DNA from: Planctomycetota bacterium
GTDB lineage: Bacteria > Planctomycetota > Planctomycetia > Pirellulales > UBA1268
Assembly (NCBI GenBank): GCA_018970605.1
Contig: JAGWWA010000001.1
Span: 57,742 to 121,741, forward strand
DNA: 64,000 nt
Reading direction: 5' to 3'
Shown: piece after piece, positions 22,808 to 39,543 of the stretch
Numbering within the stretch: the first letter of the stretch is position 1
Layout of the letters: each line of letters begins with the position of its first letter
Made by a program: the position numbers and the translations under genes
The notes under the pieces: generated by a model
What the model was told of the DNA's origin: nothing
The model's input: the letters and a program-made list of their open reading frames with translations, nothing else
The model's database searches: none

Positions 22808-22836
22808 TTGATACCGCTGCCGGGGGACGCCGTCAA
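22808..22836 (-). promoter_or_regulatory. candidate sigma70-type promoter for the PspA-AAA+ cluster
   Basis: On the minus strand it reads TTGACG - 17 nt - TATCAA. The -35 element overlaps the stop codon of the upstream giant gene. Confidence 0.4.
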
Positions 22837-25800
22837 TCGGCCCGTCGATTCCGACGGCGGCTGATCACGAGGCCCGCCGCCGTCGTCACCAGCGTTCCGA
22901 CCATCAGCTGTGCCGACGGCTCGGGCACGGCGGCCACCTCCTCCCCGAGACCTGGGGGCGCGTTGTACGGCCCCGCATCGAAGAGCCCGGTGGAAAGGAA
23001 GTCGGCCGCGTCGAGGATGTCCACCAGACCGTCGTACCCGAAGTCGCCCTCGATCCAGGAAGCCGGCTGTCCGCTGTCAAACTTTCCTCCGGCGAGGAAG
23101 TTGGCGGCGTCGAGGATGTCGACGTTCCAATCGAGGTTGGTGTCGCCCGCGGCGGCGAAGGCGAAGGTCACCGATCCGTCGCCGTTGTCGAGCCAGCCGA
23201 CGGTTCGCGGAATGCTCTGGGCAATGTCGGTGGCAGCCTGGCTCGACGTGATCCCGCTCGTGCCGCTCCATGAGCCGTCGCCGCGTCCGGCAACCAGCGC
23301 CGTCAGCATGTCGACCGTCGATAGCCCCGCGGACACGGTCATCAGTCCACTGCCGACATCGGTCATGCCACCCGCATTGGGCTTCAGCCCGCCGACCGTC
23401 GTCTGCAGGCCCGCCGCCAACGCGAGCGTGCCGCCGGCGAGGGGCACGATGCTGCTCGAGCCGAGCGCGGAGCCGTTCGCCAGTTGGAGCACGCCACCCC
23501 GCACGGTCGTGCTGCCGCTGAGCGAGTTGGCCGCTGCCAGCACCATCCGGCCGGCGCCGGTCTTGCGGAAGCCGTTGGTGCCTCCGATCCAGCCCGAGAC
23601 GACGAGATCGTCGCTGGCCGTACCATCGGCCACGTCCACGGCGAAGCCGTCGGTGCCGAACCGCACGTCCTGCGCCGTGATCCGCGACGTGGTCGCCCCG
23701 CCGGCGACCGAGAGCGCATTGCCCGATCCCGAGAACACATAACTCCCGTAGGTGGCGCTCGCGGCGCCGCTGGCGAGCGTGCCGCCGGCGAGGGTCACGT
23801 TGGTGGCGTGGGTCGTCACATTGTCGGCGGTCGTAAGAACGCCCCCGGCCTCGATCACGTAGGGCCGGGTACCGTCGGCGTAGCCGTGGAGCGCATTGTC
23901 GGCCGCGACGACGATGGTGCCGCCCGCCGTCGCCCGCACCACGCCCGATGTGCCCGCGACTGTGCCGAACTGCGACTGCGCGACCGCCAGTTCCAGCGTC
24001 CCCGACGCCACCGTCAGGTCGCCGGCAAGATCGCTCGTGCCCGTCAGCCGCAGCGTGCCGGCGGACCGCTTCGTCACCCAGAGCCCGCCGGTGAGACTCC
24101 CTGAGTAGGCATTGCTGCTCCCCGACGGGATCGCCAGTGTCAGCATCGCCGAACCGCTCGTGGAGGTGATGCGGCTGTACGACGTCGCCCCGGTGAGGTT
24201 GTTGGTCACGCCGGCGAGTTGCTGGTCGAATCCATTCAGGTCGAGGATCGCCGTCGTGTTTCCGTTGCCGGTGTCGCCAATCCGCATCGTGGCGCCGATC
24301 GGGATCACGTTGGCCCTCCCCAGCCGCACGGTGCCGGCCGTCAATCGCAGCTCGTCGTAGCTGCTGCCGGAACCCGACAGCACGACGATGCCGTCGCGCA
24401 CCGTCACGAATCGATCGGCGGGGAGCGCCGCCGTGTGCGCGATCGGGCCCGCGATCTCCAGCGTGCCGCCCGAACTGGCGCTGAAGTGACCGCCTGCCTG
24501 CACCGAACCGCTGATCGTGATCGGCCCGGTCACCGTGGCCGTGCCGCTCGAAATCGCCGCCTGCACGGCCCCGACGCCAACCGCACCACCCCCCCGGATC
24601 GTGATCGGGGTGGCGACCGACACGCCTGCCGCATCCAGCGTGAACTGGTTTCCCGTGCCCTCGTAGATCGTGAGCGACGACGTGGATGGGACGGCCGCCG
24701 AGGTCGTCACCGCCAGTCGGCCGCCGAGCACCGTGATCGGACCGGTGAACGAGTTGGAGGCGGACAACGTCAGCTTCGCAGACCCGGCCTTCGTGAGCGA
24801 TACGGCCGCCGACCCGTTGTCGCCGATGCCGGCGGCGATCGTCAGGCCGCCGGAGTTCGCCTGGTTCACGAGCAGTTCGGCCGCCTTCGTACCATCGCCG
24901 GCGGTGAGGCCCACCACGTCGGTGAATCCGCTGATCGTCACCGCCGCCGCCGTGGCCGAGGCGATCGAAAGCAGGCCGCCGCTGCTGAGAGTCAGCTTGC
25001 TGGAGCCAAGATCGAGCGTCTGGCCGGCCGCGTTGGCCGCGATCCGCAGGCTGTTGGTGGTCAGCGGCGCAAGCATCGTCTCGCTCGTGCTCGTCTCCGT
25101 GTTGTTCGTGTCACTGCCGCCGAAGATGTTGAGCAGGCCGTAGCTCAGCGCGTCGAGCCCGGTCAGCCCGCCGGGATTCGTGCCGTCGCCTCCCGAGACC
25201 GCCCAGGTCGTACCCCCTACGGTCAGCCAGGGCCCCACGATTCCATTCGTGTTCGCCGTCGTCGTCGTGACCTGGCCGGACGAGGGCACGGTGAGCGTGG
25301 CGACCGATGGCCCGGTTCGAGTCAGGCCGCCCAGATTGAGCGTCATGCTGCCGGCGGAGCCGCTCGCTGCCACGATCGTCGAGACGCCCGGCAACACGCT
25401 GGTGGTGGCGAAGGTCTGCGTGTTCGACTTGCTCGCGCCCCCCGCCGCCCGCACGCCACCGCCGCCGAGCCGCAGCGCTGCCGTCGGAACCACGATGTCG
25501 TCGTTGACCGCGGATGTCCCGAAATCGAGGGTCACGGTTCCCTGAGACACGGCCACCGCACCAACCGTCGTCAGGTTCGACAGCGCGAGTGTGCCCGACC
25601 CGACCTTCGTGATCGATGCCGCAGTGAGTTGGCCGGCGTACGCGGTCGAACTGCCGCTCCGGCCCACGGAGAGATCGTTCGTGCCGGCGTTGAGGTCGCG
25701 GGATCCCTTGAGCCCGCCGAGCACATAGGCCCCGGTTCCGGTGGCCGTGAACCCGAGACCGCCGGTGTCGCCGGCGGCGAGATTCACCACCGAGTTTTGC

Positions 25801-28145
25801 AGGGCCTCACGATCCCGCAGCGCCAGCGTGCCCTCCACCACGCGCGTGTCGCCGGTGAAGCTGCCGGCGGCGGCGAGCGTCAGGGTGCCGGCGCCGAGTT
25901 TGGTCAACGTGCCCCCGGCGCTCGCCAGCGGCGACGCGAACGTCACCGCCTGTCCGTTGGTGTCGATCCTCACCGCCTGGTTGGCAGCCGACGAGAATCG
26001 TGGGGAATAGTCGGTGGTGTTGGCAGCCGAATACTGGAGCGTGCCGCCGCCGAACGAGATCGTGCCGCTGCCTCCGAGGGCTCCGGCCGCCGCGGCCTGC
26101 AGCACGCCGCCGTTCAACGCCACCGCGCCCAGGGTGTTGGTCGCCGCCAGCACTACCGAGCCCGACCCGACGACCGTCAGCGGCAGCCCCCCGACGAGGC
26201 CGGAGGATACCGTGAGGATGCCGTCGCCGCCGCCGAGCCGATACCCGGCCGAGCCCGAGGTCACCGTGCCGGAGAGCGTCGCCGCCCCCAGAGCGCCGAT
26301 GGACAGTCCCGGATACGACGCCAGCGACAGGTTGCTCGAGTCATTCGCCGTCGCGAGGATCGATCCAGCCGATGCCGTCGCCACCCGGCCGCTCGCCAGC
26401 CAGCCGCCGACCGACGCATAGGCACCGTCGGCGACAAGCGCGGCGCCCGCGCGGACATCCACGCTCCCGGCGGTCGGCAGCGACGCGGGCGTGGTGAAAC
26501 GGATCACACCTCCCGCCACCACGGTCCCGCCCGAGTAGCCGTTGCTCCCAGAGAGGCTCAGGGTGCCGCTGCCGAGTTTTACGAGGCCGACCGCCCCACC
26601 CCCGACACCGGTCGTGTCGAGCACGGAGTCGGCGAGCGTGAAGCTGCCGGCCGCCGAGGTGTCGAAGCCGATCCGCGCGCCGGCGAGCAGCCCATTGCCG
26701 TTCACGCTCCGATCGACGGCCGCGATCACGGCCGAGATCGCGGCGGCATCGAACCCCGACGTGCCGCCCACCACGAAGGCGGCCGTCGCCCCCGATCCGG
26801 TGACGAGCCGCGCCGGAGTCCAGGCGGCGACCGTCCCGCCGACGAGCGTGGCCGGCGTGGTGAAGAGCAGCGTCCCCGCCGACACCGTCGTCGGCCCCTG
26901 AAACGTGTTGGCGGCGGTGAGGCTCACGAGGCCGGTGCCGACCTTCCTGAGCGACCCGACCCCAGAGAGCGGCACCGTGAGCGAGGTCGTGCCGGAGGTT
27001 CCCACGTTGAGCGCCACCCCCGCACCCGACGTGCTCGTGAGCACCACCGCGTTGGAGCCGGTCAGCCCGCCGATGTTCACCTCGCTCAGCGCCCCGAACG
27101 TGAGCGTGCCCGTCGGCGATGTGCCCGACTGTGTGTTGAAGGTGGTGCCGGCCAACGCGTACTGGTTGCCGAGCACGAGCCGCCCGGCGGTCACCGTCGT
27201 CGTGCCGCTGAACGTGTTGCTGCCGGAGAGCAGAAGCGTCCCAGTGCCCGACTTCGTGAAGCCGTTGCCGCCGATCACCTGGGCCGAGATCTCGAGGTCG
27301 ACCCCGGAGGCGTCGCCCGTCCCGTTCACCGTGAACGTCCGCGTGGAGTTGAGGTTGATCTGGCCGCTGCCCGTCGTCGACAGGATCGTGGACTTGGCCG
27401 TGCCGCCCACGGTGACCGCGGAGTTGTTCTGAAACACCAGCGATGCACCGGACGAGCCTCCGGATCGCGCGTCGATCGTCGCCCCGTTGAGCGTCATCGT
27501 CGTGCGGTAGTTGTTGGTCTTGTCGAGCTGCAGCGTGGTGCCCGCGCCGAGCGTCAGCGCGGTGCTGTTGTCGGAGTTGGCCGTGCCGTCGAGGCCGTTG
27601 ACGCCCGAGAAGATCAGCCGCGTGCCCGCCGTCGAGACCGTGATCGCTCCCGGGTAGGGTTTGTTGGCCGACGTGAAGTTCACGGTGCCGCCGCCTTGGA
27701 TGCCGAGACCAAGACCGGCGCCGTTGGTGCTGGTGATCGTCAGGGACGTGCTGGGGCTGACCACGATCGCCCGCGCGGGAGAGAGCGTGCCGTTGTTCGC
27801 CCAGGCGACCACGCCGGAGAGCGTGAACGAACCCGACGTCACGTTGATCCGGCAGAACTGCGGGATCCCACTCGCCGTGAGCGTGCCGCTCGTGCCCTGG
27901 AGATACGCCTGGCTCGTCGTCGAACTCACGAAGGATCCCAGCGTTCCGCTGCTGGAACCGACGAACCAGTTGCTGCTGGTGGTGTTCCATGTGCCCGACC
28001 CGCCGAGCGATGTGCCGGTGGCGGTCCAGTAGTAGTCGACGGCCATCGTCTCACGAACCGGCACCGCGACGCTCGCCACGGCCATCACCGCCGCCGCGAT
28101 CCGCCCGACCAGGGAACCAGACACACCGTGACCCGTGCGATGCAT
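22833..28145 (-). CDS. giant surface protein: signal peptide, autotransporter-associated beta-strand (PATR) repeats, dockerin-like repeats, PEP-CTERM anchor (1770 aa)
   Basis: N-terminus MHRTGHGVSGSLVGRIAAAVMAVASVAV. Dozens of LxKxGxGTLxLxGxNxYxGxTxVxxGxL units. DTNLDWNVDILDAANFLAGG ... GDFGYDGLVDILDAADF. C-terminus VPEPSAQLMVGTLVTTAAGLVISRRRNRR. Confidence 0.85.
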   Translation of the reverse strand: MHRTGHGVSGSLVGRIAAAVMAVASVAVPVRETMAVDYYWTATGTSLGGSGTWNTTSSNWFVGSSSGTLGSFVSSTTSQAYLQGTSGTLTASGIPQFCRINVTSGSFTLSGVVAWANNGTLSPARAIVVSPSTSLTITSTNGAGLGLGIQGGGTVNFTSANKPYPGAITVSTAGTRLIFSGVNGLDGTANSDNSTALTLGAGTTLQLDKTNNYRTTMTLNGATIDARSGGSSGASLVFQNNSAVTVGGTAKSTILSTTGSGQINLNSTRTFTVNGTGDASGVDLEISAQVIGGNGFTKSGTGTLLLSGSNTFSGTTTVTAGRLVLGNQYALAGTTFNTQSGTSPTGTLTFGALSEVNIGGLTGSNAVVLTSTSGAGVALNVGTSGTTSLTVPLSGVGSLRKVGTGLVSLTAANTFQGPTTVSAGTLLFTTPATLVGGTVAAWTPARLVTGSGATAAFVVGGTSGFDAAAISAVIAAVDRSVNGNGLLAGARIGFDTSAAGSFTLADSVLDTTGVGGGAVGLVKLGSGTLSLSGSNGYSGGTVVAGGVIRFTTPASLPTAGSVDVRAGAALVADGAYASVGGWLASGRVATASAGSILATANDSSNLSLASYPGLSIGALGAATLSGTVTSGSAGYRLGGGDGILTVSSGLVGGLPLTVVGSGSVVLAATNTLGAVALNGGVLQAAAAGALGGSGTISFGGGTLQYSAANTTDYSPRFSSAANQAVRIDTNGQAVTFASPLASAGGTLTKLGAGTLTLAAAGSFTGDTRVVEGTLALRDREALQNSVVNLAAGDTGGLGFTATGTGAYVLGGLKGSRDLNAGTNDLSVGRSGSSTAYAGQLTAASITKVGSGTLALSNLTTVGAVAVSQGTVTLDFGTSAVNDDIVVPTAALRLGGGGVRAAGGASKSNTQTFATTSVLPGVSTIVAASGSAGSMTLNLGGLTRTGPSVATLTVPSSGQVTTTTANTNGIVGPWLTVGGTTWAVSGGDGTNPGGLTGLDALSYGLLNIFGGSDTNNTETSTSETMLAPLTTNSLRIAANAAGQTLDLGSSKLTLSSGGLLSIASATAAAVTISGFTDVVGLTAGDGTKAAELLVNQANSGGLTIAAGIGDNGSAAVSLTKAGSAKLTLSASNSFTGPITVLGGRLAVTTSAAVPSTSSLTIYEGTGNQFTLDAAGVSVATPITIRGGGAVGVGAVQAAISSGTATVTGPITISGSVQAGGHFSASSGGTLEIAGPIAHTAALPADRFVTVRDGIVVLSGSGSSYDELRLTAGTVRLGRANVIPIGATMRIGDTGNGNTTAILDLNGFDQQLAGVTNNLTGATSYSRITSTSGSAMLTLAIPSGSSNAYSGSLTGGLWVTKRSAGTLRLTGTSDLAGDLTVASGTLELAVAQSQFGTVAGTSGVVRATAGGTIVVAADNALHGYADGTRPYVIEAGGVLTTADNVTTHATNVTLAGGTLASGAASATYGSYVFSGSGNALSVAGGATTSRITAQDVRFGTDGFAVDVADGTASDDLVVSGWIGGTNGFRKTGAGRMVLAAANSLSGSTTVRGGVLQLANGSALGSSSIVPLAGGTLALAAGLQTTVGGLKPNAGGMTDVGSGLMTVSAGLSTVDMLTALVAGRGDGSWSGTSGITSSQAATDIAQSIPRTVGWLDNGDGSVTFAFAAAGDTNLDWNVDILDAANFLAGGKFDSGQPASWIEGDFGYDGLVDILDAADFLSTGLFDAGPYNAPPGLGEEVAAVPEPSAQLMVGTLVTTAAGLVISRRRNRRAD

Positions 28146-28251
28146 GAAAGCCTCCCGGCTCGCGAGCGACGCGGCCACGCGGCATGTCGCTCGATGCCGC
28201 CGCGTCCACCGCTCAAACCCCCCGGAGAATACGGGTCGCCATCGAAAGGGA

Positions 28252-28293
28252 GTATTAGCCACCCGGCTAATCCCCGTCGTCACGATGGGCCTG
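28252..28293 (-). promoter_or_regulatory. conserved upstream block containing the 16-bp palindrome TTAGCC-N4-GGCTAA (28255-28270)
   Basis: The minus strand reads caggcccatcgtgacgacggggaTTAGCCgggtGGCTAAtac. The same block occurs at 36149-36188. Exactly 109 nt separate the palindrome from the ATG at 28145. Confidence 0.5.
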
Positions 28294-28297
28294 CACA

Positions 28298-29638
28298 ATG
28301 CGCCTGGTCGCGTTTTGCCGCCGCCCTCGACCTGCGGAATCAACCTTCGTGCCTCGCCATGCCGCTCGATTCTTTCCGTGCGCCCAGGCCGTCCTCCTGG
28401 CGGTGATCTTCCCGTGGTCGCCGCTCGCCGACGCGGTCGTCCCTCCGGTTGCGCACGGGCCACGAACTGCTCGGCTGGCGACCACGCCGATCAAGGGCAT
28501 CTGCGGCAACGCTCGCCTCGCCGACGCGGTCGCCTGCGGGGCCAACGTGATTCGCACCTACGCAGCGCCGACCGTCGCGGAACTCGACCGGTACGAGGCG
28601 CTCGGGCTTCGCGTGATCGTCGGCCATTGGATGCCCCACGAGGGCACCAACATCGGCAAGGAAGGCTGGCCCTGGAAACACTCCTACGCAGCAGCCGCCG
28701 AGACGATGGATCGCGAGTTCGCCGCCGTCGTCGATCGAATCGGCGACCATCCCGCCATCGTGATGTGGAGCCTCGGAAACGAAGTGCGGCTCGAACCGGC
28801 GTATCTCCGCCAGGCCGACAGGCTGTCTCGCATCGTGCACGAGCGGCACCCGGCGATGCCCACGAGCCTCACGATGGTCAATGCGCCGGCAGCGTCGATC
28901 GCGCTGATCACGGAGCATGCCACCGACATCGACGTGCTCGGCGTCAACAGTTACGGGCACGGTGCCGTCGGCGGCGCGATCGCCACCCTGCAGGAGCAGT
29001 GGCGGAAGCCCTTTTATTTCTCCGAGTTCGGACCCACCGGGCCGTGGTGGGGGCCGCAGGCCTCGTGGGGGCCACGATTCGAGGCGGGAGCGTCGGCCAA
29101 AGCCGCCGATCTCGGCAAGGCATGGGAGCGGATCGCCGCGGCCGAGGGCTGCCTGGGAGGCTGCGCATTCCTCTGGGGGTGCTGGCCTCGGGAGCGGATC
29201 TCGTACTTCAGCATGCTGCTCACCCCCGATCCCTGGTGCCCGACTCAACTCGATGCCGACTGCCGCTTCACGCCGCTCGCCGACGTCCTCGCGATCGCAT
29301 GGACAGGATCGTGTCAGCGGCGCCCTGCGCCACGACTTGAACGGCTCGAGATCGACGGACTGACGAATCAGGACGTCGTCGTGGAGGCGGGAGCGACGAT
29401 GCGGGCGACCGCGGAGCGAGGCGGGCATGATCTCGGACCAGTCCGCTTCCGCTGGTGGATCGCCCGCGAGACAGCGGAAGGCTTTCGCCCCGTCGCTGGA
29501 CCATGCGACACACTGGAACCGTCCGCCACCCTCGTCGCCCCCGCGGAGCCGGGCGCGGCATTCATCCTCTTCTGCCTCGCCCTCGACGACGGCACCGGCG
29601 CCTGCGCCACCACGCTGCCCTTCAAGACCGCCGACTGA
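28298..29638 (+). CDS. putative glycoside hydrolase (clan GH-A TIM barrel, GH2/GH5-like) with a C-terminal beta-sandwich-like region
   Basis: IVMWSLGNEV (acid/base NE) and FYFSEFGP (nucleophile-like E), with a signal-like AVLLAVIFPWSPLADA. The start is uncertain: ATG at 28298 or an in-frame GTG about 50 nt downstream. Confidence 0.6.
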   Translation: MRLVAFCRRPRPAESTFVPRHAARFFPCAQAVLLAVIFPWSPLADAVVPPVAHGPRTARLATTPIKGICGNARLADAVACGANVIRTYAAPTVAELDRYEALGLRVIVGHWMPHEGTNIGKEGWPWKHSYAAAAETMDREFAAVVDRIGDHPAIVMWSLGNEVRLEPAYLRQADRLSRIVHERHPAMPTSLTMVNAPAASIALITEHATDIDVLGVNSYGHGAVGGAIATLQEQWRKPFYFSEFGPTGPWWGPQASWGPRFEAGASAKAADLGKAWERIAAAEGCLGGCAFLWGCWPRERISYFSMLLTPDPWCPTQLDADCRFTPLADVLAIAWTGSCQRRPAPRLERLEIDGLTNQDVVVEAGATMRATAERGGHDLGPVRFRWWIARETAEGFRPVAGPCDTLEPSATLVAPAEPGAAFILFCLALDDGTGACATTLPFKTAD

Positions 29639-32600
29639 TCCGGCACCCCGCGACGGCCGCCGCCACGCAGGCAAGCCATGCGAGGCTCGTCGGCTCGGGC
29701 ACCACGGCCAGCGGTGCTTGCGCCATCCCGGCCGGCCCGGGAACGTAGTCGCCCGTGTCGAACAGCGCCGTGCTCACGAAATCTGCGGCGTCGAGGATGT
29801 CGACCAGGCCGTCGGCGGTGAAGTCGCCCTGCGACCAATCGGCGTCCAAGCCCGTGTCGAAGCGGGCACCGGCCAGGAAGTTGGCGGCGTCGAGCACGTC
29901 CACGAGCCCGTCGATGTTGGAATCGCCCGCCGCGGCGAAGCTGATCGTGAAGGAGCCGTCGCCGTTATCCAGCCAGCCTACGGTGCGAGGCACTCCGGCG
30001 GCGAGGTCGGCTGCGACCGCCGATGAGACGATGCCGCCCGGCCCATCCCAGGCGCCATCGTCGCGGCCGGCCGTCAGGTCGGCCCGCAGCATCGAGAGCG
30101 TCATGCCCGAGGCGATCGTCACCCGCCCCCGGCCGACGTCGAGTCGGCCCGCCGCCTCGTCGATCGCGAGCGACTTCAGGGTCACGGCGAGCGGACGATC
30201 GGCGGGCAGGGCCACTCTCCCGCCCGTGATCGCGACGGATCCCGTCGTCGCCAAGGCCGCGGAGTGGGCCAGGCGGAGCGTGCCCTCCTTCACCGTCGTC
30301 GGCCCGGTGAACGCGTTGGCCGCGGCGAGCGTCCACGTGCCCGAGCCCGACTTCACGAGGCTCACCGCCGACACGCCATCGGCGATCGCACCGGCAACCA
30401 TGTTGCCGGTGCTGCTGCCGGCGAGTTCAAGCGTCTTGGGCACCGCGTTGATCGCGGCCGCGGCGCCGCCGAGCGTCACCATCGCGGTCGTGGGCATGAG
30501 CCGAGTGACCGCACCGCTGGCCCCTGCGGTCAATGCCAGCGACGGCATCACCAGTTCCGCCGTCCCGCTGGTCACGCTCGTCGAGGCCTGCACCTCGACC
30601 GTGCCGCCGCTCAGGCTGATTCCCGAGGCGAGCGCGTGGCGGAGGCCGACACCCGTGGTGCCGGCAGGCCGGCCGACGACGAGCGTGGTGCCGAAGCCGT
30701 TGCTGCCGCGTAGGGACGGCTGCGGGCCGCTGCCGTCCGTGGCGAGTTCGATGGTCGAGGCCGTCGAACTGCCCAGCACCAGGCCGCCGCCGACCGGCAG
30801 GCCACCAAGGGCACCGGAATGGGCAAGCACGATGGCGCCGCCGTTGCCGACCGTGACATCGCTCGTGAACGTGTTGGCCGCCGCGAGCACGAGACGCCCC
30901 CCCGTCACCGCCAGCCCACCGGCGCCCGAAACGGCTCCGGCAAGCGTCTGAGTCGCCGAACCCTGGTGAAGGAACAGCGCCCCCGCCGCGAGCGACAGCT
31001 CGCCGGCGAACGTACCGCCCGGACCGAGCGACCCCGCCCCGCTCACGGCCAGCGTGCCGTCGGCCACCGTGATGTCGCCGCTGAAGCCGCCGCTGCCCGT
31101 AAGCGAAAGCGTGCCCCCGCCGTCCTTGCGCAGAACGCCGTCGCCGGACAGGCCGCCCGCGAGCGTGACCGCGTCGGCGTGATCAAAGGCGAGCGTGCCG
31201 CGGATGACGAACTCGGAACTCGGAATCACGAGACCGCTGCCGCCGCTGCCGAATCGAAGAGTGCCGTCGGCGACGGTGGTGCGGCCGGTGTAGCCGCTCG
31301 ACCCGTTGATCACGAGCGTCGCCGTGCCCGCCTTGGTCAGGCCGCTGGCGCCCGCGGCGTTGTTGAAGACGCCGTTGTGCAGGATAACGTCGGCCGTGGC
31401 CGTGTTCACCACGAGTTCCCGCGTCGCCCCGGCCACGAGATCCATGCGGGGCGAACCGCCGATCGTCAGCGGCCCGGCGCCGGTCGTGAGGATCCCATTG
31501 ACCGTGAGCGTGACCGTGTTGGCCGCCGGTTGCACGCCCCCGCCGCCGCCGTAGTTGATGGTGTTGACGACCCGCGTCAGCCCCATGGCGGCGAAGGTGC
31601 CCGACGAGGTCACGTCGTAGTTGACGGTGCCCGTGTCGCCGGACGGGATGCCGCCGAAGGCGGAGGTGCCGCTGAGCACCGTCCCGGTCGTGAACGCCGC
31701 GATCGTCCCGGCGGCCACCGTGGCATACCGCGTGCCGGTCCCGGAACCGGTGAACGCCCAGGCGGCGAGAATCCCGTTCGTGGCCGTCGCCGACGTGGTG
31801 ATCGGTCCCGTTCGCGTCACGAAGCGAACGACGCCGCCGTTCTCGCGCGTGAGGGCCGACAGCCCGAGCGTACCGGTGGCGATCGTGTTCGACACGGCCG
31901 AATCGCCGGCGGTGATCGTCACGCCAGCGACGGCCTGCGATCCGCCCGCCTTCGCCAGGCCGAACGTGCCGCCGGCGAGCGTGAGCCGCGCCGCAGGGTT
32001 CACGCCACCCGCCACCTGCAGCATGCCCGCCTCCACCCGCATGCCGCCGCTGAAGGTGCTCGTGCCGGAGAGCGTGAGCGTGCCGTCGCCGACTTTCACG
32101 ATCCCGCCCGTGCCGCTGATCGTATTCGCATAGGTCGCCGTCCCCGCCCGATCGAAGATGACGCTCGCCTGGTTCGCGATCGGCCCCGTCAGGCCGCCCG
32201 TCGTGCCGCCGGCGCCAATCCGGAGCGCGCCCGCGGCCACCGTGGTGGTGCCGGTGAAGGCGTTGTTGCCGGCGAGCGTGAGCATGCCGCCGCCCTCTTT
32301 GACCAGGCCGCCGCTGCCGCTGATCACGCCGCCATACGAGGTGCTCCGCCCGGTGCCGCCGATCCGCAGCGACTGACCTCCCAGGGCGAGGTTTCGCACG
32401 CCCGTCAGGCCAGCCAGGCTGAACGTCGCGGGCGCCGTGCCACCGAACACGATGGTGCCTGCGTCGGCGGCATCGAGATCGAGCGTCGCGGCGGCGAGGG
32501 CCGCGGTGCCCGAGATCGCGAGCGTGCCGGCGGCGATCCGCACCGTGCCATCGAGATCGTTGACGGCTGCGAGTGCGAGCGTTCCGCTGCCGAGCTTCGT

Positions 32601-35438
32601 GAGCGATCCGCCGACGCTCACGAGCGGCTGTGAGTAACCGACGCTGCGGCCCGCGGTGTCGATCCGAAAATCCTGGCCGGCGGCCTGCGAGAATCGCGGC
32701 GAGTAGTCGGTCGCATTCGCGGCGGAATGTTGGAGCCCGCCCCCCGAAAACACGATCGTACCGGCCGCGCCGAGAGCCTCCGCCGAACCGGCCTGCAGGA
32801 GCCCGCCAGCCAGCGTGAGCCCGCCGGTGAACGAGTTGGCGCCCGTCAGCGACACGGTGTCGCCGCCGACCTTCACGAGCGGCGCACCGGTCGCCAGATC
32901 GGCCGTCACCAGCAGGAAGCCGTCGCCGCCGCCGAGCCGGTATCCCCCTGCCCCGGGCGTCACGCCGCCGGTGAAGGACGCCATGCCGCTGCCACCGAGG
33001 GAGAGTCCGGGCAGGCCACGCAGATCGAGGGATGCGCCGAGCGTCCCCGAAATCGCGACCGCTCCCGTCGACGCAGGATCGATCCGCCCACCCGCGATCC
33101 AGTCCGCGACGGGAGCGCCGTCGAACGGCGCGAATACACCGCTCGACCCGATGAGCACCGTGCCGGTTGCGGGCAGCGCGGTCGACCCGGTGAACCTCAG
33201 GATGCCCTCCTCGATGATCATGCCGCCACCGAACGTGCTCGTGCCCCCGAGCGTCAGCACGCCCGACCCGGTCTTCACGAGGCCCCCGGTACCCGCGATG
33301 CCCCCCGTGGAGACCGTCGAGCGGCCGTTGCCGCCGACACGCAGCGTGTGTCCTGCGATGGAGAGGCCACGGCTTCCCGACAGGCCGCCGACCGAAAACG
33401 TCTGCGGGAAGGCCGCCACGAAACTGATGGAGCCTGCATCAGCCGCATTCAAGTCGAGCGTCGAGCCGGCGAGGCTCGAGGTGCCGGCGATCCGCAAGGT
33501 GCCGGCCACGACCCGCGTGTCGCCCGCGAAGGCATTGTCGCCGGCGAGCGTCCAGATCCCGCTGCCGGTCTTGATGAGTCCGCCGGAACCGACATACGCC
33601 TTGGCGAGCGTGCCGGATCCGGTGGTCGCCTGGAGCGTGAGATCGCCACCGAGCGACACGATCCGCCCGACGGAGTTCGACTCCAGGAACGACACGGTCA
33701 CACCGGGCTGCACTTCGAGGATCGCCCCGCCCGGTCCCACCGTGAAACCGCGGCTCGTCGAGCCGGAGCCTCCGAGGCGAAGCGCGCCGCCATCGAGGAT
33801 CACTCGATCGGCGGCCGGCGGCAGGTTGCCGAGCGACCCGGTGGGCTGGTCGGAAAAACTGCTCGCGAACAGCGTGCCCGACGAGACCGTGATCGCGGCC
33901 TCCGTCCCCACGACGCCCGTGTAGAGCCGGCCCGAGACGGCCAGCATGCCGCCCTCGACGCGGGTCGGCCCCGCATACGTGTTCGCCGTGGTCGAGAGCA
34001 CGAGAATCCCGCCGCCCGCCTTGGTGATCCCTGCGGCGGCGGTGCCGGCCACGAGCGGGCCGGCGAGCGTGGTCGTGCCCGTGCCGACGAGCGTGGTCTG
34101 GCCGGACACCGTCGCCGTGCCGGTCAGCCGCAGGTTGCCGACGGCATCGATCGCGCCGCCGTCGAACGCGAACGGATCGTCGAGCGTGAAGGTGCCCGCC
34201 GCCTGCTCGATCGCCAGCGTCCCGGCGGCGCCGAGTCGCATGCTCCCGGCCCCCGTCATGCTCGCCGATCCGGTGAGCCGCAGCGTGCCGCCGATCACCT
34301 CGATCGTGCCGTCGTTGGTGATCTGCGTGCCATCGAGCGAGAGTCGGTTGGTGCCCGTCTTCCGCAGGACGGCGTCCGGCTCGACCCGGACCCACGTGCT
34401 CGTGCCACTGAGCCCCCAGTTCATGCCCCCGGTGACACTGCTGGTATTGGCCAGGGCGCTGAGATACTTCACCGCGCCGGGAGCCGTGCCGGTCATCGTC
34501 AGCGTGCCGCCGGCCAGGTAGGCCACGTACTCGCCGAGGTTTTGGCCGCCGATGTTGGCCGTGCTGCCGCTGGCGACCGCGCCCACGTAGCGGTGGGCCA
34601 TCGGGGTGGGCGTGGGGGGCGAGCCCGAGTAGAGCGGCGCGTCACTGAACCAGTGGTACCAGGCGTACCCGGGCACGTAGCTCCGCGACTCGAGCCGCGG
34701 CAGCACGTTGTCGAGAAACAGCTTGTTGGCGTCGATGATCTGCTGGTCGGTGTAGGCGCCGCCCCAGTCGTGGATCGCGAACTCGGTCGGCATCACCGAC
34801 TTGCCGTAGGTGGTGCGGTAGTAATCGACGCTGCCGATGAACCAGTTGGCCGCCTCGGTGGGGTTGTTGGGATTCGAGTAGCCGTACCAATGAAACGCGA
34901 TCGCATCGACTCGAAGGTTGGGGTTGTACTTCGGGTTGGCCGCGTTGGTGCGGCGGTCCTCCAACTGGGTCATGAAGTCGGAGATCCAGGTTCGGCCCGC
35001 CGTGTTGTCGGAGACGGCAGGACTGGCCAGCTTCACGCTGGTGCCGGCGAAGGCGTTGCAGATCCGCGACCAGGCGTCGAGCGCGGTGGTGACGCTCATG
35101 TTCGCCTGGTCGGTCCGCTCCGGCTCGTTGAAGCCCAGCACCCACTCCACGCCGGCCCTGTTCTTGACCGTGTTGATCGTCGCATCGCTCGGCGAGTTCC
35201 AGAACATCGGGTAATGCTTGGCGCCGAAACTGCCCGGCTGAGCGGTGCCCGTTCCCCAGGTGTAGTACCAGCCGGCGCCCACGGCCTGGAGGTTCGCGTA
35301 GTTCGCCCCGACATCGCCGAACCCACGCTTGGAGTTGATGATCTGGGCGGACGAAGCTTCGGCGAGGCAGATGCCGACCGCGATGGCGATCAGTCCACGC
35401 GTGAGACCGGCACGGCGGCGAAGAGACGGGGCTGCCAT
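29622..35438 (-). CDS. giant surface protein: signal peptide, GH128-like 'glycosyl hydrolase catalytic core', PATR repeats, dockerin-like repeats, PEP-CTERM anchor (1938 aa)
   Basis: The N-terminal ~300 aa (KRGFGDVGANYANLQAVGAGWYYTWG ... VEWVLGFNEPERTDQANMS ... VDAIAFHWYG ... VMPTEFAIHDWGG) resemble the Glyco_hydro_cc family. C-terminus GDSNIDGLVDVLDAANF ... VVPEPTSLAWLACVAAAVAGCRISRRS. Confidence 0.85.
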   Translation of the reverse strand: MAAPSLRRRAGLTRGLIAIAVGICLAEASSAQIINSKRGFGDVGANYANLQAVGAGWYYTWGTGTAQPGSFGAKHYPMFWNSPSDATINTVKNRAGVEWVLGFNEPERTDQANMSVTTALDAWSRICNAFAGTSVKLASPAVSDNTAGRTWISDFMTQLEDRRTNAANPKYNPNLRVDAIAFHWYGYSNPNNPTEAANWFIGSVDYYRTTYGKSVMPTEFAIHDWGGAYTDQQIIDANKLFLDNVLPRLESRSYVPGYAWYHWFSDAPLYSGSPPTPTPMAHRYVGAVASGSTANIGGQNLGEYVAYLAGGTLTMTGTAPGAVKYLSALANTSSVTGGMNWGLSGTSTWVRVEPDAVLRKTGTNRLSLDGTQITNDGTIEVIGGTLRLTGSASMTGAGSMRLGAAGTLAIEQAAGTFTLDDPFAFDGGAIDAVGNLRLTGTATVSGQTTLVGTGTTTLAGPLVAGTAAAGITKAGGGILVLSTTANTYAGPTRVEGGMLAVSGRLYTGVVGTEAAITVSSGTLFASSFSDQPTGSLGNLPPAADRVILDGGALRLGGSGSTSRGFTVGPGGAILEVQPGVTVSFLESNSVGRIVSLGGDLTLQATTGSGTLAKAYVGSGGLIKTGSGIWTLAGDNAFAGDTRVVAGTLRIAGTSSLAGSTLDLNAADAGSISFVAAFPQTFSVGGLSGSRGLSIAGHTLRVGGNGRSTVSTGGIAGTGGLVKTGSGVLTLGGTSTFGGGMIIEEGILRFTGSTALPATGTVLIGSSGVFAPFDGAPVADWIAGGRIDPASTGAVAISGTLGASLDLRGLPGLSLGGSGMASFTGGVTPGAGGYRLGGGDGFLLVTADLATGAPLVKVGGDTVSLTGANSFTGGLTLAGGLLQAGSAEALGAAGTIVFSGGGLQHSAANATDYSPRFSQAAGQDFRIDTAGRSVGYSQPLVSVGGSLTKLGSGTLALAAVNDLDGTVRIAAGTLAISGTAALAAATLDLDAADAGTIVFGGTAPATFSLAGLTGVRNLALGGQSLRIGGTGRSTSYGGVISGSGGLVKEGGGMLTLAGNNAFTGTTTVAAGALRIGAGGTTGGLTGPIANQASVIFDRAGTATYANTISGTGGIVKVGDGTLTLSGTSTFSGGMRVEAGMLQVAGGVNPAARLTLAGGTFGLAKAGGSQAVAGVTITAGDSAVSNTIATGTLGLSALTRENGGVVRFVTRTGPITTSATATNGILAAWAFTGSGTGTRYATVAAGTIAAFTTGTVLSGTSAFGGIPSGDTGTVNYDVTSSGTFAAMGLTRVVNTINYGGGGGVQPAANTVTLTVNGILTTGAGPLTIGGSPRMDLVAGATRELVVNTATADVILHNGVFNNAAGASGLTKAGTATLVINGSSGYTGRTTVADGTLRFGSGGSGLVIPSSEFVIRGTLAFDHADAVTLAGGLSGDGVLRKDGGGTLSLTGSGGFSGDITVADGTLAVSGAGSLGPGGTFAGELSLAAGALFLHQGSATQTLAGAVSGAGGLAVTGGRLVLAAANTFTSDVTVGNGGAIVLAHSGALGGLPVGGGLVLGSSTASTIELATDGSGPQPSLRGSNGFGTTLVVGRPAGTTGVGLRHALASGISLSGGTVEVQASTSVTSGTAELVMPSLALTAGASGAVTRLMPTTAMVTLGGAAAAINAVPKTLELAGSSTGNMVAGAIADGVSAVSLVKSGSGTWTLAAANAFTGPTTVKEGTLRLAHSAALATTGSVAITGGRVALPADRPLAVTLKSLAIDEAAGRLDVGRGRVTIASGMTLSMLRADLTAGRDDGAWDGPGGIVSSAVAADLAAGVPRTVGWLDNGDGSFTISFAAAGDSNIDGLVDVLDAANFLAGARFDTGLDADWSQGDFTADGLVDILDAADFVSTALFDTGDYVPGPAGMAQAPLAVVPEPTSLAWLACVAAAVAGCRISRRS

Positions 35439-35445
35439 GCCGCAC

Positions 35446-36105
35446 CTAGCTCGGCTCGCGGCGCGAGGCTCCGGCCTTGAGCAGTCCGAGATCGAACGCC
35501 CGCGCCACCGCCTGCGTGCGATCACCGACACCGAGCTTCTCGATCACCCCGGCGACGTGGGCCTTGGCGGTGTGCGTGGAGATGCCGAGCAGTTTGGCGA
35601 TCTCGTTGTTGGTAAAGCCCTCGCGGAGCAATCCCACCACCTCGAGTTCGCGGGGCGTGAGCAGGGCCGCCGGTCCACTCGCCGTCGCCGCGGGCCGGGT
35701 CTTCACCACACCCCTCACCGGCCGCCCCCCCCTGTGAACCTCCCGGATCGCCTCGAAGAGTTCGCGGTGCCCGACGTGCTTGGTGACGTACCCGCTGGCG
35801 CCGGCATCCAGCGACCGCTGGGCATCCTCCTGCGACTCCGCCGAGGTGAGCATGAGCACGCTCGCCGCCGGCGACGCGCGGCGGATGCGGTGGAGGGTGG
35901 CGATCCCGTCGATTCCGTGCATGGCGAGATCCAGGAGCGTGACGTCGGGCTGGTGCTGCTGCCAGAGGCTATACGCGGCCTCCCCGTCGTCGGCCTGCGC
36001 CACCACCGAAAAATCCGGCTCCGAGCCCAGGAGATTGGCCAGTCCGGCCCGCATGACGGGGTGGTCATCCACGAGAAGCAAGCGAATTTTGCGAAGCGGG
36101 GTCAT
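35446..36105 (-). CDS. response regulator, NarL/FixJ (LuxR-type HTH) family
   Basis: IRLLLVDDHPVMRAGL, the phospho-acceptor context VTLLDLAMHGIDG, LTPRELEVVGLLREGFTNNEIAKLLGISTHTAKAHV. It ends 7 nt before the start of the giant gene at 35438. Confidence 0.9.
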   Translation of the reverse strand: MTPLRKIRLLLVDDHPVMRAGLANLLGSEPDFSVVAQADDGEAAYSLWQQHQPDVTLLDLAMHGIDGIATLHRIRRASPAASVLMLTSAESQEDAQRSLDAGASGYVTKHVGHRELFEAIREVHRGGRPVRGVVKTRPAATASGPAALLTPRELEVVGLLREGFTNNEIAKLLGISTHTAKAHVAGVIEKLGVGDRTQAVARAFDLGLLKAGASRREPS

Positions 36106-36148
36106 CGCACGTCCCTGGGCGGGGCATCCCCCTTCGGTCACCTTATAT

Positions 36149-36188
36149 CAGGCCCATGACGACAGCCACTTAGCCGGATGGCTAATAC
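36149..36188 (+). promoter_or_regulatory. conserved upstream block containing the 16-bp palindrome TTAGCC-N4-GGCTAA (36170-36185)
   Basis: caggcccatgacgacagccacTTAGCCggatGGCTAAtac. There are 109 nt from the palindrome to the ATG at 36295. It lies in the divergent region shared with the response-regulator operon. Confidence 0.5.
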
Positions 36189-36294
36189 CGCCGACCGGAC
36201 CGGGAATCTATACCTGCTTTGCGGTTCAATGAGTCGGGGGTGGTTCGCCCGAGCGTGGGCTGCATCGTTTCCGGGGATCATGTTTCCGGGGGTC

Positions 36295-37827
36295 ATGAGG
36301 TCTGCCATGCCTGTCACTCACGCCATCGGCCTGCGACCGGTTCTCGTGCTTGCAGCGGTCGCGATCGTCTCCTTGGTCGCCCGCGGCGCCGTGGCGGTTG
36401 ACTACTACTGGACAGCCGACGGCACGAACCTCGGTGGCTCTGGAACCTGGAACACCACGAGCAGCCTGTGGCGTTCCGGCTCGTCGACGGGCACGCTGAC
36501 CACGTTCGTGAGCGCGACCACGAGCCAGGCATTCCTGCAGGGCACGAGCGGCACGCTCACGACGAACGGCACGCCGCAGTTCAATCGGATCACCGTGAAC
36601 TCAGGGAGCTTCACCGTGTCGGGCCTCGTGGCCTGGGCGACCGACGGCACGATCTCGCCCTCGCGGGCTATCGTCGTGAACCCCTCCACGGCGCTGACGA
36701 TCACCAGCACGAACGGCGGCGGCGTGGGGCTCTCCGTGCTCGGCGGCGGCACGCTCACCTTCACGCAGAGCAATCGCAACTACGGCGGCACGATCACCGT
36801 GTCGACCGCGGGCACCAGGCTGATCTTCTCGGCCGTCAATGGGCTCGACAACGGCACGAACAGCACGCCACTCACGATGCAGGCCGGGACGACGCTGCAG
36901 CTCAACCAGACGAACAACTATCGGACGGCGATGTCGCTGAGTTCTGCTGCGGTGGAAGTCAATGCGGGCAGCGCACTCGTCTTCCAAAACAGCTCGTCCG
37001 TTACCGTGACGGGCACGTCGGCATCGGTGATCAAGACCGGCACCAACGCTGCAGGCACGATCCAGTTCAACAGTACCAGAACGTTCACGGTCGGCTCGAC
37101 CGGCGATCCGTCGGGCATCGATTTCGACATCCAGTGCCGGGCCACCGGCGGTTCTGGGCTCGTGAAGGCCGGTCCTGGCACGATGCGGCTCTCGGGCACG
37201 ACTTCGACGTATACGGGGACCACCAGCGTCTCTGCCGGGAAGCTGATCATCGATGGCAACAACCTGGCGGCCACGGGAACTGTTTCAGTGGCGGCGGGGG
37301 CATGGCTGGCCGGTACCGGAACCACGGGCGGTCCGCTTTCCATCAGCGGCAGCCTGAGCCCCGGCAATGGCATCGGCACGCTCACGGGCGGTTCGTCGGC
37401 GTCCTTCGCGAATGGGTCTCTCTTCGATTATCAGATGCTCACCTCCACGCCGTCGGCCGATCTGCTGAAACTGGCCGGCGACCTGACGCTGACCGGGTCG
37501 GTGGCGCTCTCGCTCTCGGACCTGGGGACGTCGTCCACCCTGCCAGCCGACACCGTGCTCTCGCTCGTGAACTACGGCGGCGCACTGAGCGGACTGTTTT
37601 CCTACGGCGGCGTGACGCTCAACGACAACGACCAGTTCACGCTCGGCAGCAACACCTGGCGGATCGCCTACGCCTCCGCGCAGCAGGGCGTGAACGTCGC
37701 CTCGCCGCTGCCGTCGGGACAGTTCGTCAACCTGATCGTGGTGCCCGAGCCTGGATGCCTGACGGCGATCGCCTCCGGATTCATGCTCGCTGGAATATGC
37801 CTGGCACGCCGCCGCTCGCAGGACTGA
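36295..37827 (+). CDS. PATR-repeat surface protein with PEP-CTERM anchor, a short paralogue of the 22833-28145 protein
   Basis: MRSAMPVTHAIGLRPVLVLAAVAIVSLVARGAVAVDYYWTADGTNLGGSGTWNTTSS. The first ~330 aa align closely with giant protein 1. C-terminus VVPEPGCLTAIASGFMLAGICLARRRSQD. The start at 36295 was chosen because 36178 lies inside the palindrome and 36295 reproduces the 109-nt spacing. Confidence 0.8.
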   Translation: MRSAMPVTHAIGLRPVLVLAAVAIVSLVARGAVAVDYYWTADGTNLGGSGTWNTTSSLWRSGSSTGTLTTFVSATTSQAFLQGTSGTLTTNGTPQFNRITVNSGSFTVSGLVAWATDGTISPSRAIVVNPSTALTITSTNGGGVGLSVLGGGTLTFTQSNRNYGGTITVSTAGTRLIFSAVNGLDNGTNSTPLTMQAGTTLQLNQTNNYRTAMSLSSAAVEVNAGSALVFQNSSSVTVTGTSASVIKTGTNAAGTIQFNSTRTFTVGSTGDPSGIDFDIQCRATGGSGLVKAGPGTMRLSGTTSTYTGTTSVSAGKLIIDGNNLAATGTVSVAAGAWLAGTGTTGGPLSISGSLSPGNGIGTLTGGSSASFANGSLFDYQMLTSTPSADLLKLAGDLTLTGSVALSLSDLGTSSTLPADTVLSLVNYGGALSGLFSYGGVTLNDNDQFTLGSNTWRIAYASAQQGVNVASPLPSGQFVNLIVVPEPGCLTAIASGFMLAGICLARRRSQD

Positions 37828-37937
37828 AACACATCGAGCCCCACGCCTCGCCAGCCCCGTCGGGGTTGGTGGACGGGCCAGTGCCGTTTCGGGCGTGGCA
37901 GCCGTCACGCTATACTCGCCGCGGGAGGGCGGAGATC

Positions 37938-39035
37938 ATGACACTACAGCGACATCGATCCGTGGCTCACGCATCGGGATTTACGCTGGTCGAGCTCCTG
38001 GTCGTGATTGCGATCATCGCCACGCTGATCGGCCTCCTGCTGCCAGCGGTGCAAACAGCACGTGAAGCTGCTCGGCGGACTGCCTGCTCCAACAACCTCA
38101 AGCAGGTGGGGCTCTCACTCCACACCTACCAGAACGCGAAGAAGTGGCTGCCACGATCGTTCGGCAACCGCAACATGCAGAACTCCGCCTTCACGGCCAA
38201 CAACGGCAAGGCGGGCTGGCAACAGGGCACGCCCGACACGTGGGCGGCAGAAGTTTTTCCGTTTGCCGAACAGGCGGCGCTGTTCGACCAGTTCGATTTC
38301 ACGAAGCGGGTTGGCGACACGTCGCGGAGCCTGGCACGGCCGGTGTCCAATGCAACGCTCGTCAAGCAGGTCATTTCGATGTATGTCTGCCCGAGCGACA
38401 CGGCCGCAGGCACCCCGGTGTTCAAGAACCGTTGCAACTACAACAACTTCCGGCTGACCCAGGAGCAACACGGACTCTGGTACGCCCCGTCATTCGGGCC
38501 CACCGTGCTCATCGACCGTCCCAGTTGCACGTACTGCCCGTCGAACTCCGCGTGGGGCACGTCGCCGACCCCCGGCCCCGGCAACCCCTGCTGCAACCTC
38601 ATGGGACCGGCCAGTCACCAGGGGTTCGGCGGGATCGCCATCGGCATGTTTTCGCAGGAGCCGATTCGGGTGACGTTCAAGGACGTCCCCGACGGCCTTT
38701 CAAAGACGATCATGGTCGGCGAGACGCTCCCCGGCGACACCGTGCACAACGGTGTGTACATGAACGGGATGACGGTGCTGACCAACATTCCGCTGAACAC
38801 GTTCGCCCTGCCGAACGAACTCGTTCCCGATGGCCAGCATGATGCTCCCGGCATCGGCTCCGCGAGCGACTATCGGCTCAACGGGATCAAGAGCAAGCAC
38901 TCGGGCGGCGCGATGGTGGCCATGGGAGACGCGTCGGTGCGTTTCCTGCAGGACTCGATCGACGACACCATGCTCTGGGCCATGGGCACGCGAGCCCTGG
39001 CCGCGAGAGACGTGGCCACCGTGAGCGAGAAATGA
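37938..39035 (+). CDS. DUF1559 domain protein with a prepilin-type N-terminal cleavage/methylation motif
   Basis: GFTLVELLVVIAIIATLIGLLLPAVQTAREAARRTACSNNLKQVGLSLHTYQ is the hallmark planctomycete DUF1559 N-terminus, and a GGAMVAMGDASVRFL C-terminal motif is present. GGAGGGCGGAG lies upstream of the ATG. Confidence 0.9.
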   Translation: MTLQRHRSVAHASGFTLVELLVVIAIIATLIGLLLPAVQTAREAARRTACSNNLKQVGLSLHTYQNAKKWLPRSFGNRNMQNSAFTANNGKAGWQQGTPDTWAAEVFPFAEQAALFDQFDFTKRVGDTSRSLARPVSNATLVKQVISMYVCPSDTAAGTPVFKNRCNYNNFRLTQEQHGLWYAPSFGPTVLIDRPSCTYCPSNSAWGTSPTPGPGNPCCNLMGPASHQGFGGIAIGMFSQEPIRVTFKDVPDGLSKTIMVGETLPGDTVHNGVYMNGMTVLTNIPLNTFALPNELVPDGQHDAPGIGSASDYRLNGIKSKHSGGAMVAMGDASVRFLQDSIDDTMLWAMGTRALAARDVATVSEK

Positions 39036-39487: not shown

Positions 39488-39543
39488 TCGGGCCGCGACA
39501 GCGCTCGACGGCTCCCGTGACGGTCACCGGGGTTCGTAGGGCC

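Follow-up and report, generated by a model that had tools for sequence, protein, structure and literature searches.

We analyzed a 64,000-nucleotide (nt) stretch of DNA from a Planctomycetota bacterium (Pirellulales; GenBank assembly GCA_018970605.1, contig JAGWWA010000001.1, positions 57,742 to 121,741), hereafter the window, for the role of a 16-bp palindrome, TTAGCC-N4-GGCTAA, that occurs twice between divergently transcribed genes. The initial annotation, made from the letters alone, had proposed the palindrome as the operator of a NarL-type two-component system encoded beside it. Comparative evidence supports this as the likely role: the dyad is conserved among relatives, it tracks one family of regulators, its half-sites covary with the regulator recognition helix, and it lies at an activator-type position relative to promoter-like hexamers. 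The window has a G+C content of 65-73% and carries DUF1559 genes, and its public matches come from metagenome-assembled genomes (MAGs) labelled Pirellulales or Planctomycetaceae.

Gene cluster and palindrome copies

Both palindrome copies lie in a 19-kb cluster made up of two divergent pairs of transcription units, one pair around each copy. The genes, the two dyads, and the sequences to their left are as follows.

22833-28145, minus strand: gene 1, a PATR protein of 1770 amino acids with a PEP-CTERM-like tail; N-terminal ~300 amino acids 63% identical to gene 2
28255-28270, minus strand: candidate operator copy 1, TTAGCC-GGGT-GGCTAA, between gene 1 (minus) and the glycoside hydrolase (GH)-like gene (plus)
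28271-28293, minus strand: left part of the copy 1 block, CAGGCCCAT cgt GACGAC gggga, absent in orthologues
28298-29638, plus strand: GH-like TIM-barrel protein with a weak Glyco_hydro_2_C match, transcribed away from gene 1
29622-35438, minus strand: giant secreted protein with a Glyco_hydro_cc domain, 10 PATR repeats, and a PEP-CTERM-like tail
35446-36105, minus strand: NarL/FixJ-type response regulator with a receiver domain and a GerE helix-turn-helix (HTH), recognition helix ISTHTAKAHVAG
36149-36169, plus strand: left part of the copy 2 block, CAGGCCCAT GACGAC agccac, of which orthologues keep the final GCCAC only
36170-36185, plus strand: candidate operator copy 2, TTAGCC-GGAT-GGCTAA, between the response-regulator operon (minus) and the gene 2-DUF1559-lipoprotein-kinase operon (plus)
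36307-37827, plus strand: gene 2, a PATR protein of 506 amino acids with a PEP-CTERM-like tail; alternative ATG at 36295
37938-39035, plus strand: DUF1559 protein with a prepilin-type N-terminal methylation motif
39032-39487, plus strand: small protein of 151 amino acids with a lipoprotein-like signal peptide
39544-41724, plus strand: HisKA_3 histidine kinase with a signal peptide, ~450 extracytoplasmic amino acids, one membrane helix, and a kinase core (HisKA_3 and HATPase_c)

The regulator scored 106 bits for Response_reg and 55.7 bits for GerE, and it probably forms one operon with the giant gene because the start of the latter lies 8 nt past the regulator stop. A regulator of this build with a nearby HisKA_3 kinase was kept in every related locus. 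Genes 1 and 2 had been described as PEP-CTERM genes; their VPEP motifs, hydrophobic stretches, and RRR tails are present, but the tails score 16.1 and 11.3 bits against a Pfam cut-off of 20.7. The first ATG of the GH-like open reading frame (ORF), at 28298, overlaps a tentative CACAAT promoter hexamer (see below), and orthologous genes are ~20 codons shorter. Translation probably begins at the in-frame GTG at 28349, the first codon of a good signal peptide (MPRHAARFFPCAQAVLLAVIFPWSPLADA).

The palindromes had been reported as parts of a conserved block of ~40 bp, and both strands read exactly as claimed: the copy 1 block is CAGGCCCATCGTGACGACGGGGATTAGCCGGGTGGCTAATAC (minus strand, 28293 to 28252) and the copy 2 block is CAGGCCCATGACGACAGCCACTTAGCCGGATGGCTAATAC (plus strand, 36149 to 36188). 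The dyad has the form TTAGCCG-NN-TGGCTAA, a 16-bp inverted repeat that can be read as 7-2-7 or equally as 6-4-6. Beyond these two palindromes, the window contains no match to TTAGCCNNNNGGCTAA with up to 2 mismatches; by chance, 0.45 matches were expected, and two or more were reached in 5 of 100 shuffles. A weight matrix built from orthologous sites found no further site above 10 bits in the window. The block is an isolated similarity. Both flanks, the leaders (as had been noticed initially), and the signal-peptide codons fail to align between the copies, and the mature N-terminal ~300 amino acids of the two proteins are 63% identical.

Two elements of the initial description did not hold. The distance of 109 nt between palindrome and start codon is correct for the ATGs at 28145 and 36295, but it depends on the choice of start codon. 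Public gene calls place the gene 2 start at 36307, which has a better GAGG Shine-Dalgarno sequence and lies 121 nt from the palindrome, and the distance is 85-93 nt in orthologues, so a conserved spacing to the start codon was rejected. The extended block was likewise rejected as a functional unit, since only the 16-bp dyad and the T that follows it are conserved: CAGGCCCAT and GACGAC are missing in every orthologue, including L118 and L102, whose regulators are 92% and ~91% identical to that of the window.

CAGGCCCAT and GACGAC are shared by the two copies in this species only. They lie in the spacer of the leftward promoters, at offsets that differ by 2 nt, and relatives with regulators 88-92% identical do not have them. 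This sharing suggests one of two origins: the promoter regions underwent recent gene conversion, or a second factor has a lineage-specific site here.

Conservation of the dyad and its distance to promoter-like hexamers

For comparison, syntenic loci L007-L011 were found in metagenomes and MAGs by homology to the gene 2 protein, not by the motif, and L017, L024, L102, L067, L117, L118, L078, and L065 were added through regulator homologues and motif scans. The set covers about ten related Pirellulales. Copy 1 is conserved in L009, L010, L011, L117, L078, and L065, and copy 2 in L009, L010, L011, L017, L024, L102, L067, L117, and L118. In alignments anchored on the dyad, the mean frequency of the most common base was 0.97 in the dyad columns of copy 2 (9 sequences) and 0.93 in those of copy 1 (5 sequences), compared with 0.62-0.73 in the flanking columns. 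Conservation extends over the 16-bp core and the T directly after the right arm. Copy 1 of L010 carries a paired change, T...A to C...G, for which L009 and L011 show the T...G intermediate. In L067 and L117, which have no gene 2, the dyad is kept between the regulator and DUF1559 genes with its spacing unchanged.

A hexamer of the form TAnnnT lies exactly 23 nt past the right arm in 16 of 18 sequences; at any other offset from 0 to 49 nt it was found in at most 2. On the regulator side, a reverse-strand TAnnnT (TAAGGT, TATGGT, or TAAGTT) precedes the left arm by 24 nt in all nine copy 2 sequences. The corresponding -10-like hexamers in the window are listed below.

28226-28231, minus strand: TATTCT, gene 1, 23 nt past the right arm of copy 1
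28294-28299, plus strand: CACAAT, GH-like gene, tentative, 23 nt from the left arm of copy 1; chosen by eye and the weakest element
36140-36145, minus strand: TAAGGT, response-regulator operon, 24 nt from the left arm of copy 2
36209-36214, plus strand: TATACC, gene 2 operon, 23 nt past the right arm of copy 2; final T missing

At the position of TATACC, orthologues have TAGAGT, TATGGT, TATCGT, TACATT, TAGGCT, TAAGGT, or TAGGAT, and on the side of the GH-like gene they have CATCAT or CATGAT at 22 nt. The TATAAG previously pointed out at 36142-36147 (minus strand) is present, but the hexamer conserved in orthologues is TAAGGT, which overlaps it.

These hexamers are inferred to be -10 elements, and such an assignment would account for the non-palindromic bases that are conserved beside the dyad. 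With a 17-nt spacer, the -35 position starts right after the dyad, which explains the conserved T on the right (TAC, TAT, or TGG). The same spacing on the left explains the conserved GCCAC, which read on the other strand beside copy 2 is g-TGGCTG, at the -35 position of the regulator promoter. The hexamers at the -35 positions (TACCGC, TACTCC, and TGGCTG) are poor, and a scan of both intergenic regions for sigma-70 promoters detected no full consensus. Poor -35 hexamers and the lack of a consensus promoter fit dependence on an activator. A terminator scan of both regions returned nothing. The dyad centre lies 31.5 nt (23-nt gap) or 32.5 nt (24-nt gap) from the hexamers. If these occupy positions -12 to -7, the dyad extends from -51 to -36, and its centre falls at -43.5 on the right side or -44.5 on the left side.

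As a control, we examined 95 public matches to the motif pattern. TAnnnT was present at +23 in 12 of them, and 11 of these 12 were regulator-cluster loci. The remaining one (L097, 640-658 in the oriented sequence) is on a 1.4-kb orphan metagenome contig of 62% G+C, where TTAGCCGGGTGGCTAATAT is followed by TAGGTT after 23 nt. It lies upstream of an unannotated ORF of 256 codons, and the contig shows no regulator gene. This match may represent a member of the regulon in another organism or have arisen by chance.

Occurrence of the dyad beside regulator homologues and elsewhere

Regulator homologues that are 63-68% identical to that of the window belong to analogous cassettes with other first genes (a Pel9A-like lyase or other PATR proteins), and related dyads lie in their divergent regions. 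All of these except L107 have TAnnnT at +23.

L107: GTAGCC-AGAT-GGCTAA
L111: GTAGCC-ATCT-GGCTAA
L040 and L066: CTAGCC-GGGT-GGCTAG
L114: TTGGCC-AGAT-GGCCAG and AGGGCC-ATAT-GGCCAA
L119: TTGGCC-ACCT-GGCCAA
L120: CTAGCC-AGAT-GGCTAG and CTAGCC-ACGT-GGCTAA

The A-N-N-T spacer in these paralogues indicates that the site is really a 7-2-7 repeat, which is perfect in, for example, GTAGCCA-GA-TGGCTAA and TTGGCCA-CC-TGGCCAA. The two half-sites are 6-7 bp long, with centres ~9-10 bp apart, as in a 7-2-7 operator of the GerE type.

L007 (3184-3199 and 3212-3227) and L120 (intergenic region 5779-6001) carry two dyads each, 28 and 39 bp apart, respectively. In both, 24 nt separate the left dyad from the regulator-side hexamer, and 23 nt separate the right dyad from the target-side hexamer. 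The downstream dyad of L007 has lost its left arm (CCCGCC). Judged from these sequences, such spacing is the outcome that would be expected under selection on the distance to each promoter.

Half-site and recognition helix changed together. Every family with TTAGCC, GTAGCC, or CTAGCC encodes the helix (I/V)-(S/T)-T-H-T-(A/V)-K-(A/V)-H-V-A, and both TTGGCC loci (P0099 and P0112) encode A-S-T-R-T-A-K-A-H-V-A. A change from His to Arg in the recognition helix thus accompanies a change from A to G at half-site position 3 (TTAGCC to TTGGCC).

Five paralogous loci (L107, L111, L114, L119, and L120) and the window (35446-41724) share a gene order that recurs in planctomycete metagenomes. A NarL-type regulator is divergent from a gene for a secreted PATR protein or a polysaccharide lyase or hydrolase, which is followed by a DUF1559 gene, a gene for a small protein of 140-190 amino acids, and usually, in last place, a HisKA_3 kinase gene. 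The first gene varies and may encode a PATR protein or a Pel9A-like beta-helix, or a heparinase-like gene may be nearby.

The genome-wide pattern search suggested by the initial annotation was run on public genomes, and the matches did not include the window's own genome. The strict pattern TTAGCCGRRTGGCTARTAY had 18 matches in 185,579 reference genomes, and a looser pattern had 77 in Joint Genome Institute (JGI) metagenomes, mostly unrelated. Only two of the 18 strict-pattern matches were in Pirellulales MAGs, and both were the copy 2 orthologue. In loci retrieved by the motif only, genes with a GerE-type HTH were found nowhere but within ~200 bp of the motif, namely in the planctomycete loci, L056, and Melainabacteria loci.

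In gammaproteobacteria of the Nevskiales (Sinimarinibacterium, Solimonas, and a related MAG), the identical sequence cATTAGCCGrATGGCTAATAC lies between genes for a hybrid histidine kinase and a CRP/Clp-like protein (L013, 4589-4607; L016, 6159-6177; L021, 56-74; also L018 and L025). In L013, a second, inverted copy is found 15 nt downstream, beside a TGTGA...TCACA site. We rejected the idea that these matches share a GerE-type regulator, as their neighbours are the hybrid kinase and CRP-like genes.

In Melainabacteria (L020, L054, L068, and L019; 32-36% G+C), TTAGCCGAATGGCTAATAT lies ~60 nt upstream of a gene for a stand-alone GerE-type HTH protein of 74 amino acids (in L020, motif 1113-1131 and ORF 1190-1411). 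The HTH gene starts ~60 nt downstream of TTAGCCGAATGGCTAAT, and its recognition helix, ITHHTVKAHVAS, resembles that of the planctomycete regulator. Pairing of helix and operator may thus extend across phyla, from planctomycetes to Melainabacteria, as far as these sequences indicate. If it is true that a K-A-H-V helix goes with TAGCC across phyla, this subfamily of GerE-type HTH proteins would have a readable recognition rule.

In L056 (599-617), L063, L036, and L079, on contigs of 53-61% G+C, a terminator-like hairpin precedes the motif. The L056 motif is ~166 nt past the 3' end of a gene for a NarL-type regulator that is 39% identical to that of the window and has the helix VSHATAKAHVSN. The arrangement in this group is unlike a divergent promoter.

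Predicted operator function and alternatives

Each dyad is probably the binding site for a dimer of the adjacent NarL/FixJ-type regulator, placed between back-to-back promoters and activating them. The membrane kinase (39544-41724) would sense an extracytoplasmic signal and phosphorylate the regulator, and the phosphorylated dimer would bind the 7-2-7 dyad and recruit RNA polymerase, like NarL at yeaR. As the dyad ends 1 bp upstream of each predicted -35 position, one dimer could serve both divergent promoters. Copy 2 would switch on the regulator-giant glycanase operon and the gene 2-DUF1559-lipoprotein-kinase operon, and copy 1 would switch on gene 1 and probably the GH-like gene. Predicted transcription starts are ~28219 (minus strand), 36221 (plus strand), and 36133 (minus strand). 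Autoregulation is plausible because copy 2 separates the regulator operon from the one in which the kinase gene comes last; by switching on regulator and kinase alike, copy 2 would create a positive feedback loop.

The closest precedent is NarL at Escherichia coli yeaR, where a single 16-bp 7-2-7 site centred at -43.5, just upstream of the -35 element, mediates non-canonical class II activation (PMC10853779). Both systems have a regulator with a receiver domain and a GerE-type HTH, a 16-bp repeat of two heptamers with a 2-bp gap, and a HisKA_3 partner kinase. The position would also be the same when counted from the predicted -10 elements, with the dyad ending 23 nt before the hexamer. They differ in the heptamer, which is TTAGCCA/G here and TACYYMT for NarL, and the window regulator falls far short of the model cut-offs, with 131 of 250 bits for NarL and 142 of 343 bits for NarP, so that the dyad is not a NarL box proper. 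In addition, one dyad apparently serves two divergent promoters symmetrically, the targets are secreted PATR and glycanase proteins rather than respiration genes, and the host is a planctomycete.

The ComA box of Bacillus subtilis, TTGCGG-N4-CCGCAA (PMC4797271), is a second relative. It too is a hexamer-4-hexamer repeat that starts with TT, has a G+C core, and lies upstream of the polymerase site. ComA, a tetrahelical response regulator of the GerE type, binds it as a dimer, as is predicted for the window regulator at our dyad. The half-site sequence differs, and the extra downstream direct-repeat element of ComA promoters is not seen here, with no third or fourth element conserved downstream. 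ComA sites are also more distant upstream, and divergent promoters do not share them. The lux box, a 20-bp palindrome for the GerE-type HTH activator LuxR, is centred near -42.5 in the divergent luxR-luxI region. It resembles the dyad as a single palindrome that overlaps the -35 region between regulator and target, with autoregulation (proposed here); unlike the window regulator, LuxR senses an acyl-homoserine lactone through an N-terminal ligand domain, not phosphorylation, and the lux box sequence is unrelated. As for known regulators of PEP-CTERM/exosortase systems, the window regulator is not of the sigma-54-dependent, AtoC-like PrsK/PrsR type, as it has neither an AAA+ nor a Fis domain (no search for exosortase was made beyond the cluster). 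Its match to EpsA covers the HTH only, at 56.6 bits against a cut-off of 170.

Several observations weigh against activation by the adjacent regulator. Conserved TAnnnT hexamers are the sole basis of the -10 assignment, and two sequences depart from the +23 rule: copy 2 of the window has TATACC, and L107 has no TAnnnT there. On the regulator side, TAnnnT is absent in L040, and copy 1 has a weak promoter on its left, with CAyNAT at 22-23 nt. The His/Arg covariation reflects one evolutionary event only. The only Pirellulales among the strict-pattern matches were the two MAGs, each with one perfect site, the orthologue of copy 2. The same 19-mer occurs in Nevskiales with no GerE-type gene within 8 kb, so the motif sequence by itself is not diagnostic of the regulator family. 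We infer that this regulator is the binding protein, and position alone suggests activation rather than repression. The data are consistent with a small regulon.

Of the alternatives, the one that survives best keeps the regulator as the binding protein and has it repress, blocking polymerase at the back-to-back promoters instead of recruiting it, or repress one promoter and activate the other; we regard this as unlikely. NarL-family regulators repress at some promoters, and steric effects are conceivable here because the dyad abuts both -35 positions. However, a site near -43.5 that ends just upstream of the -35 element is in the position of an activator, as for NarL at yeaR (PMC10853779). 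The poor -35 hexamers and the lack of a detected consensus also fit a need for an activator, and the split sites of L007 and L120 retain activator-type spacing to each -10 hexamer.

It is less probable still that a factor encoded elsewhere, such as a global regulator, binds the dyad and that the adjacency of the regulator gene is a coincidence. The identical Nevskiales 19-mer upstream of a CRP/Clp-like gene indicates that other proteins may recognise the sequence. Against this, the dyad accompanies regulator homologues across several paralogous families with different targets, the regulator is the sole transcription-factor gene conserved in those neighbourhoods, and the H to R change in its helix matches the A to G change in the half-site. 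For a global regulator, two sites in 64 kb and one perfect site per related MAG would be few.

A promoter element for an alternative sigma factor, formed by the dyad or its right half, GGCTAAT(A/G)(C/G), is very improbable. Two strand-specific features, the T that follows the right arm and the rigid distance of 23 nt to TAnnnT, are of the kind expected in a promoter element, but GGCTAA and the -10-like hexamer, 23 nt apart, are too far from each other to form a -35/-10 pair. The conserved T is position 1 of a -35 hexamer with a 17-nt spacer and calls for no special sigma factor. Symmetric changes (CTAGCC...GGCTAG in L010, L040, and L066; TTGGCC...GGCCAA in L119) point to a dimeric protein.

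There is least to be said for a neutral relic of the duplication of genes 1 and 2 or of recent gene conversion, or for an RNA hairpin in the 5' leaders. CAGGCCCAT and GACGAC, common to both copies here and not in orthologues, leave room for recent exchange, but the duplication is older than the species split, and all that has been retained is the dyad and the hexamer spacing, in contrast to the diverged leaders and signal peptides. The paired change in copy 1 of L010 through a T...G intermediate also fits an RNA stem, but transcription from the conserved -10-like hexamers would not include the dyad, which is upstream of them on either side, and copy 2b of L007 and copy 2 of L010 would break the stem. 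An Rfam search of 27500-37000 gave no match at E<=1. A hairpin or riboswitch leader was rejected on these three grounds.

Taken as an operator for the adjacent activator, the dyad represents a standard kind of switch in two-component regulation, for which NarL at yeaR is a close precedent; what is new is the example from the poorly studied planctomycetes. Gene regulation in Planctomycetota is almost unexplored, and our literature searches found no described operator or promoter architecture for this phylum. A search for the half-site sequences returned primer noise only, and a search for DUF1559 returned nothing relevant. The locus is a well-defined entry point, as it offers a testable unit: a named regulator and a 16-bp site, three or four predicted promoters with start points, and a proposed positive feedback loop. 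It also offers a natural specificity variant, His with TTAGCC and Arg with TTGGCC. The link of DUF1559 and giant PATR/PEP-CTERM-like surface proteins to a dedicated sensor system may help to find the signals for these abundant, uncharacterised proteins.

The recurrent cassette of regulator, PATR or carbohydrate-active enzyme, DUF1559, and kinase resembles, by analogy, a polysaccharide-utilisation locus. We propose tentatively a widespread and undescribed planctomycete counterpart of such loci, in which a NarL-type regulator with the helix (S/T)-T-(H/R)-T-x-K-x-H-V-A is divergent from an operon for a secreted PATR or polysaccharide-degrading protein, a pseudopilin-like DUF1559 protein, a small lipoprotein, and a kinase that senses extracytoplasmic signals, and is wired to it by a self-contained 7-2-7 operator at -43.5 of both promoters. 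If true, the greatly expanded DUF1559 family would be connected with secretion or uptake induced by a substrate.

Gene 2 and the DUF1559 gene are separated by 110 nt (37828-37937), which contain a TATACT hexamer (37911-37916) and a G+C-rich inverted repeat, ccagccccgtcggggttgg. These elements may form an internal promoter or an attenuator, in which case expression of the kinase operon need not depend on the operator alone.

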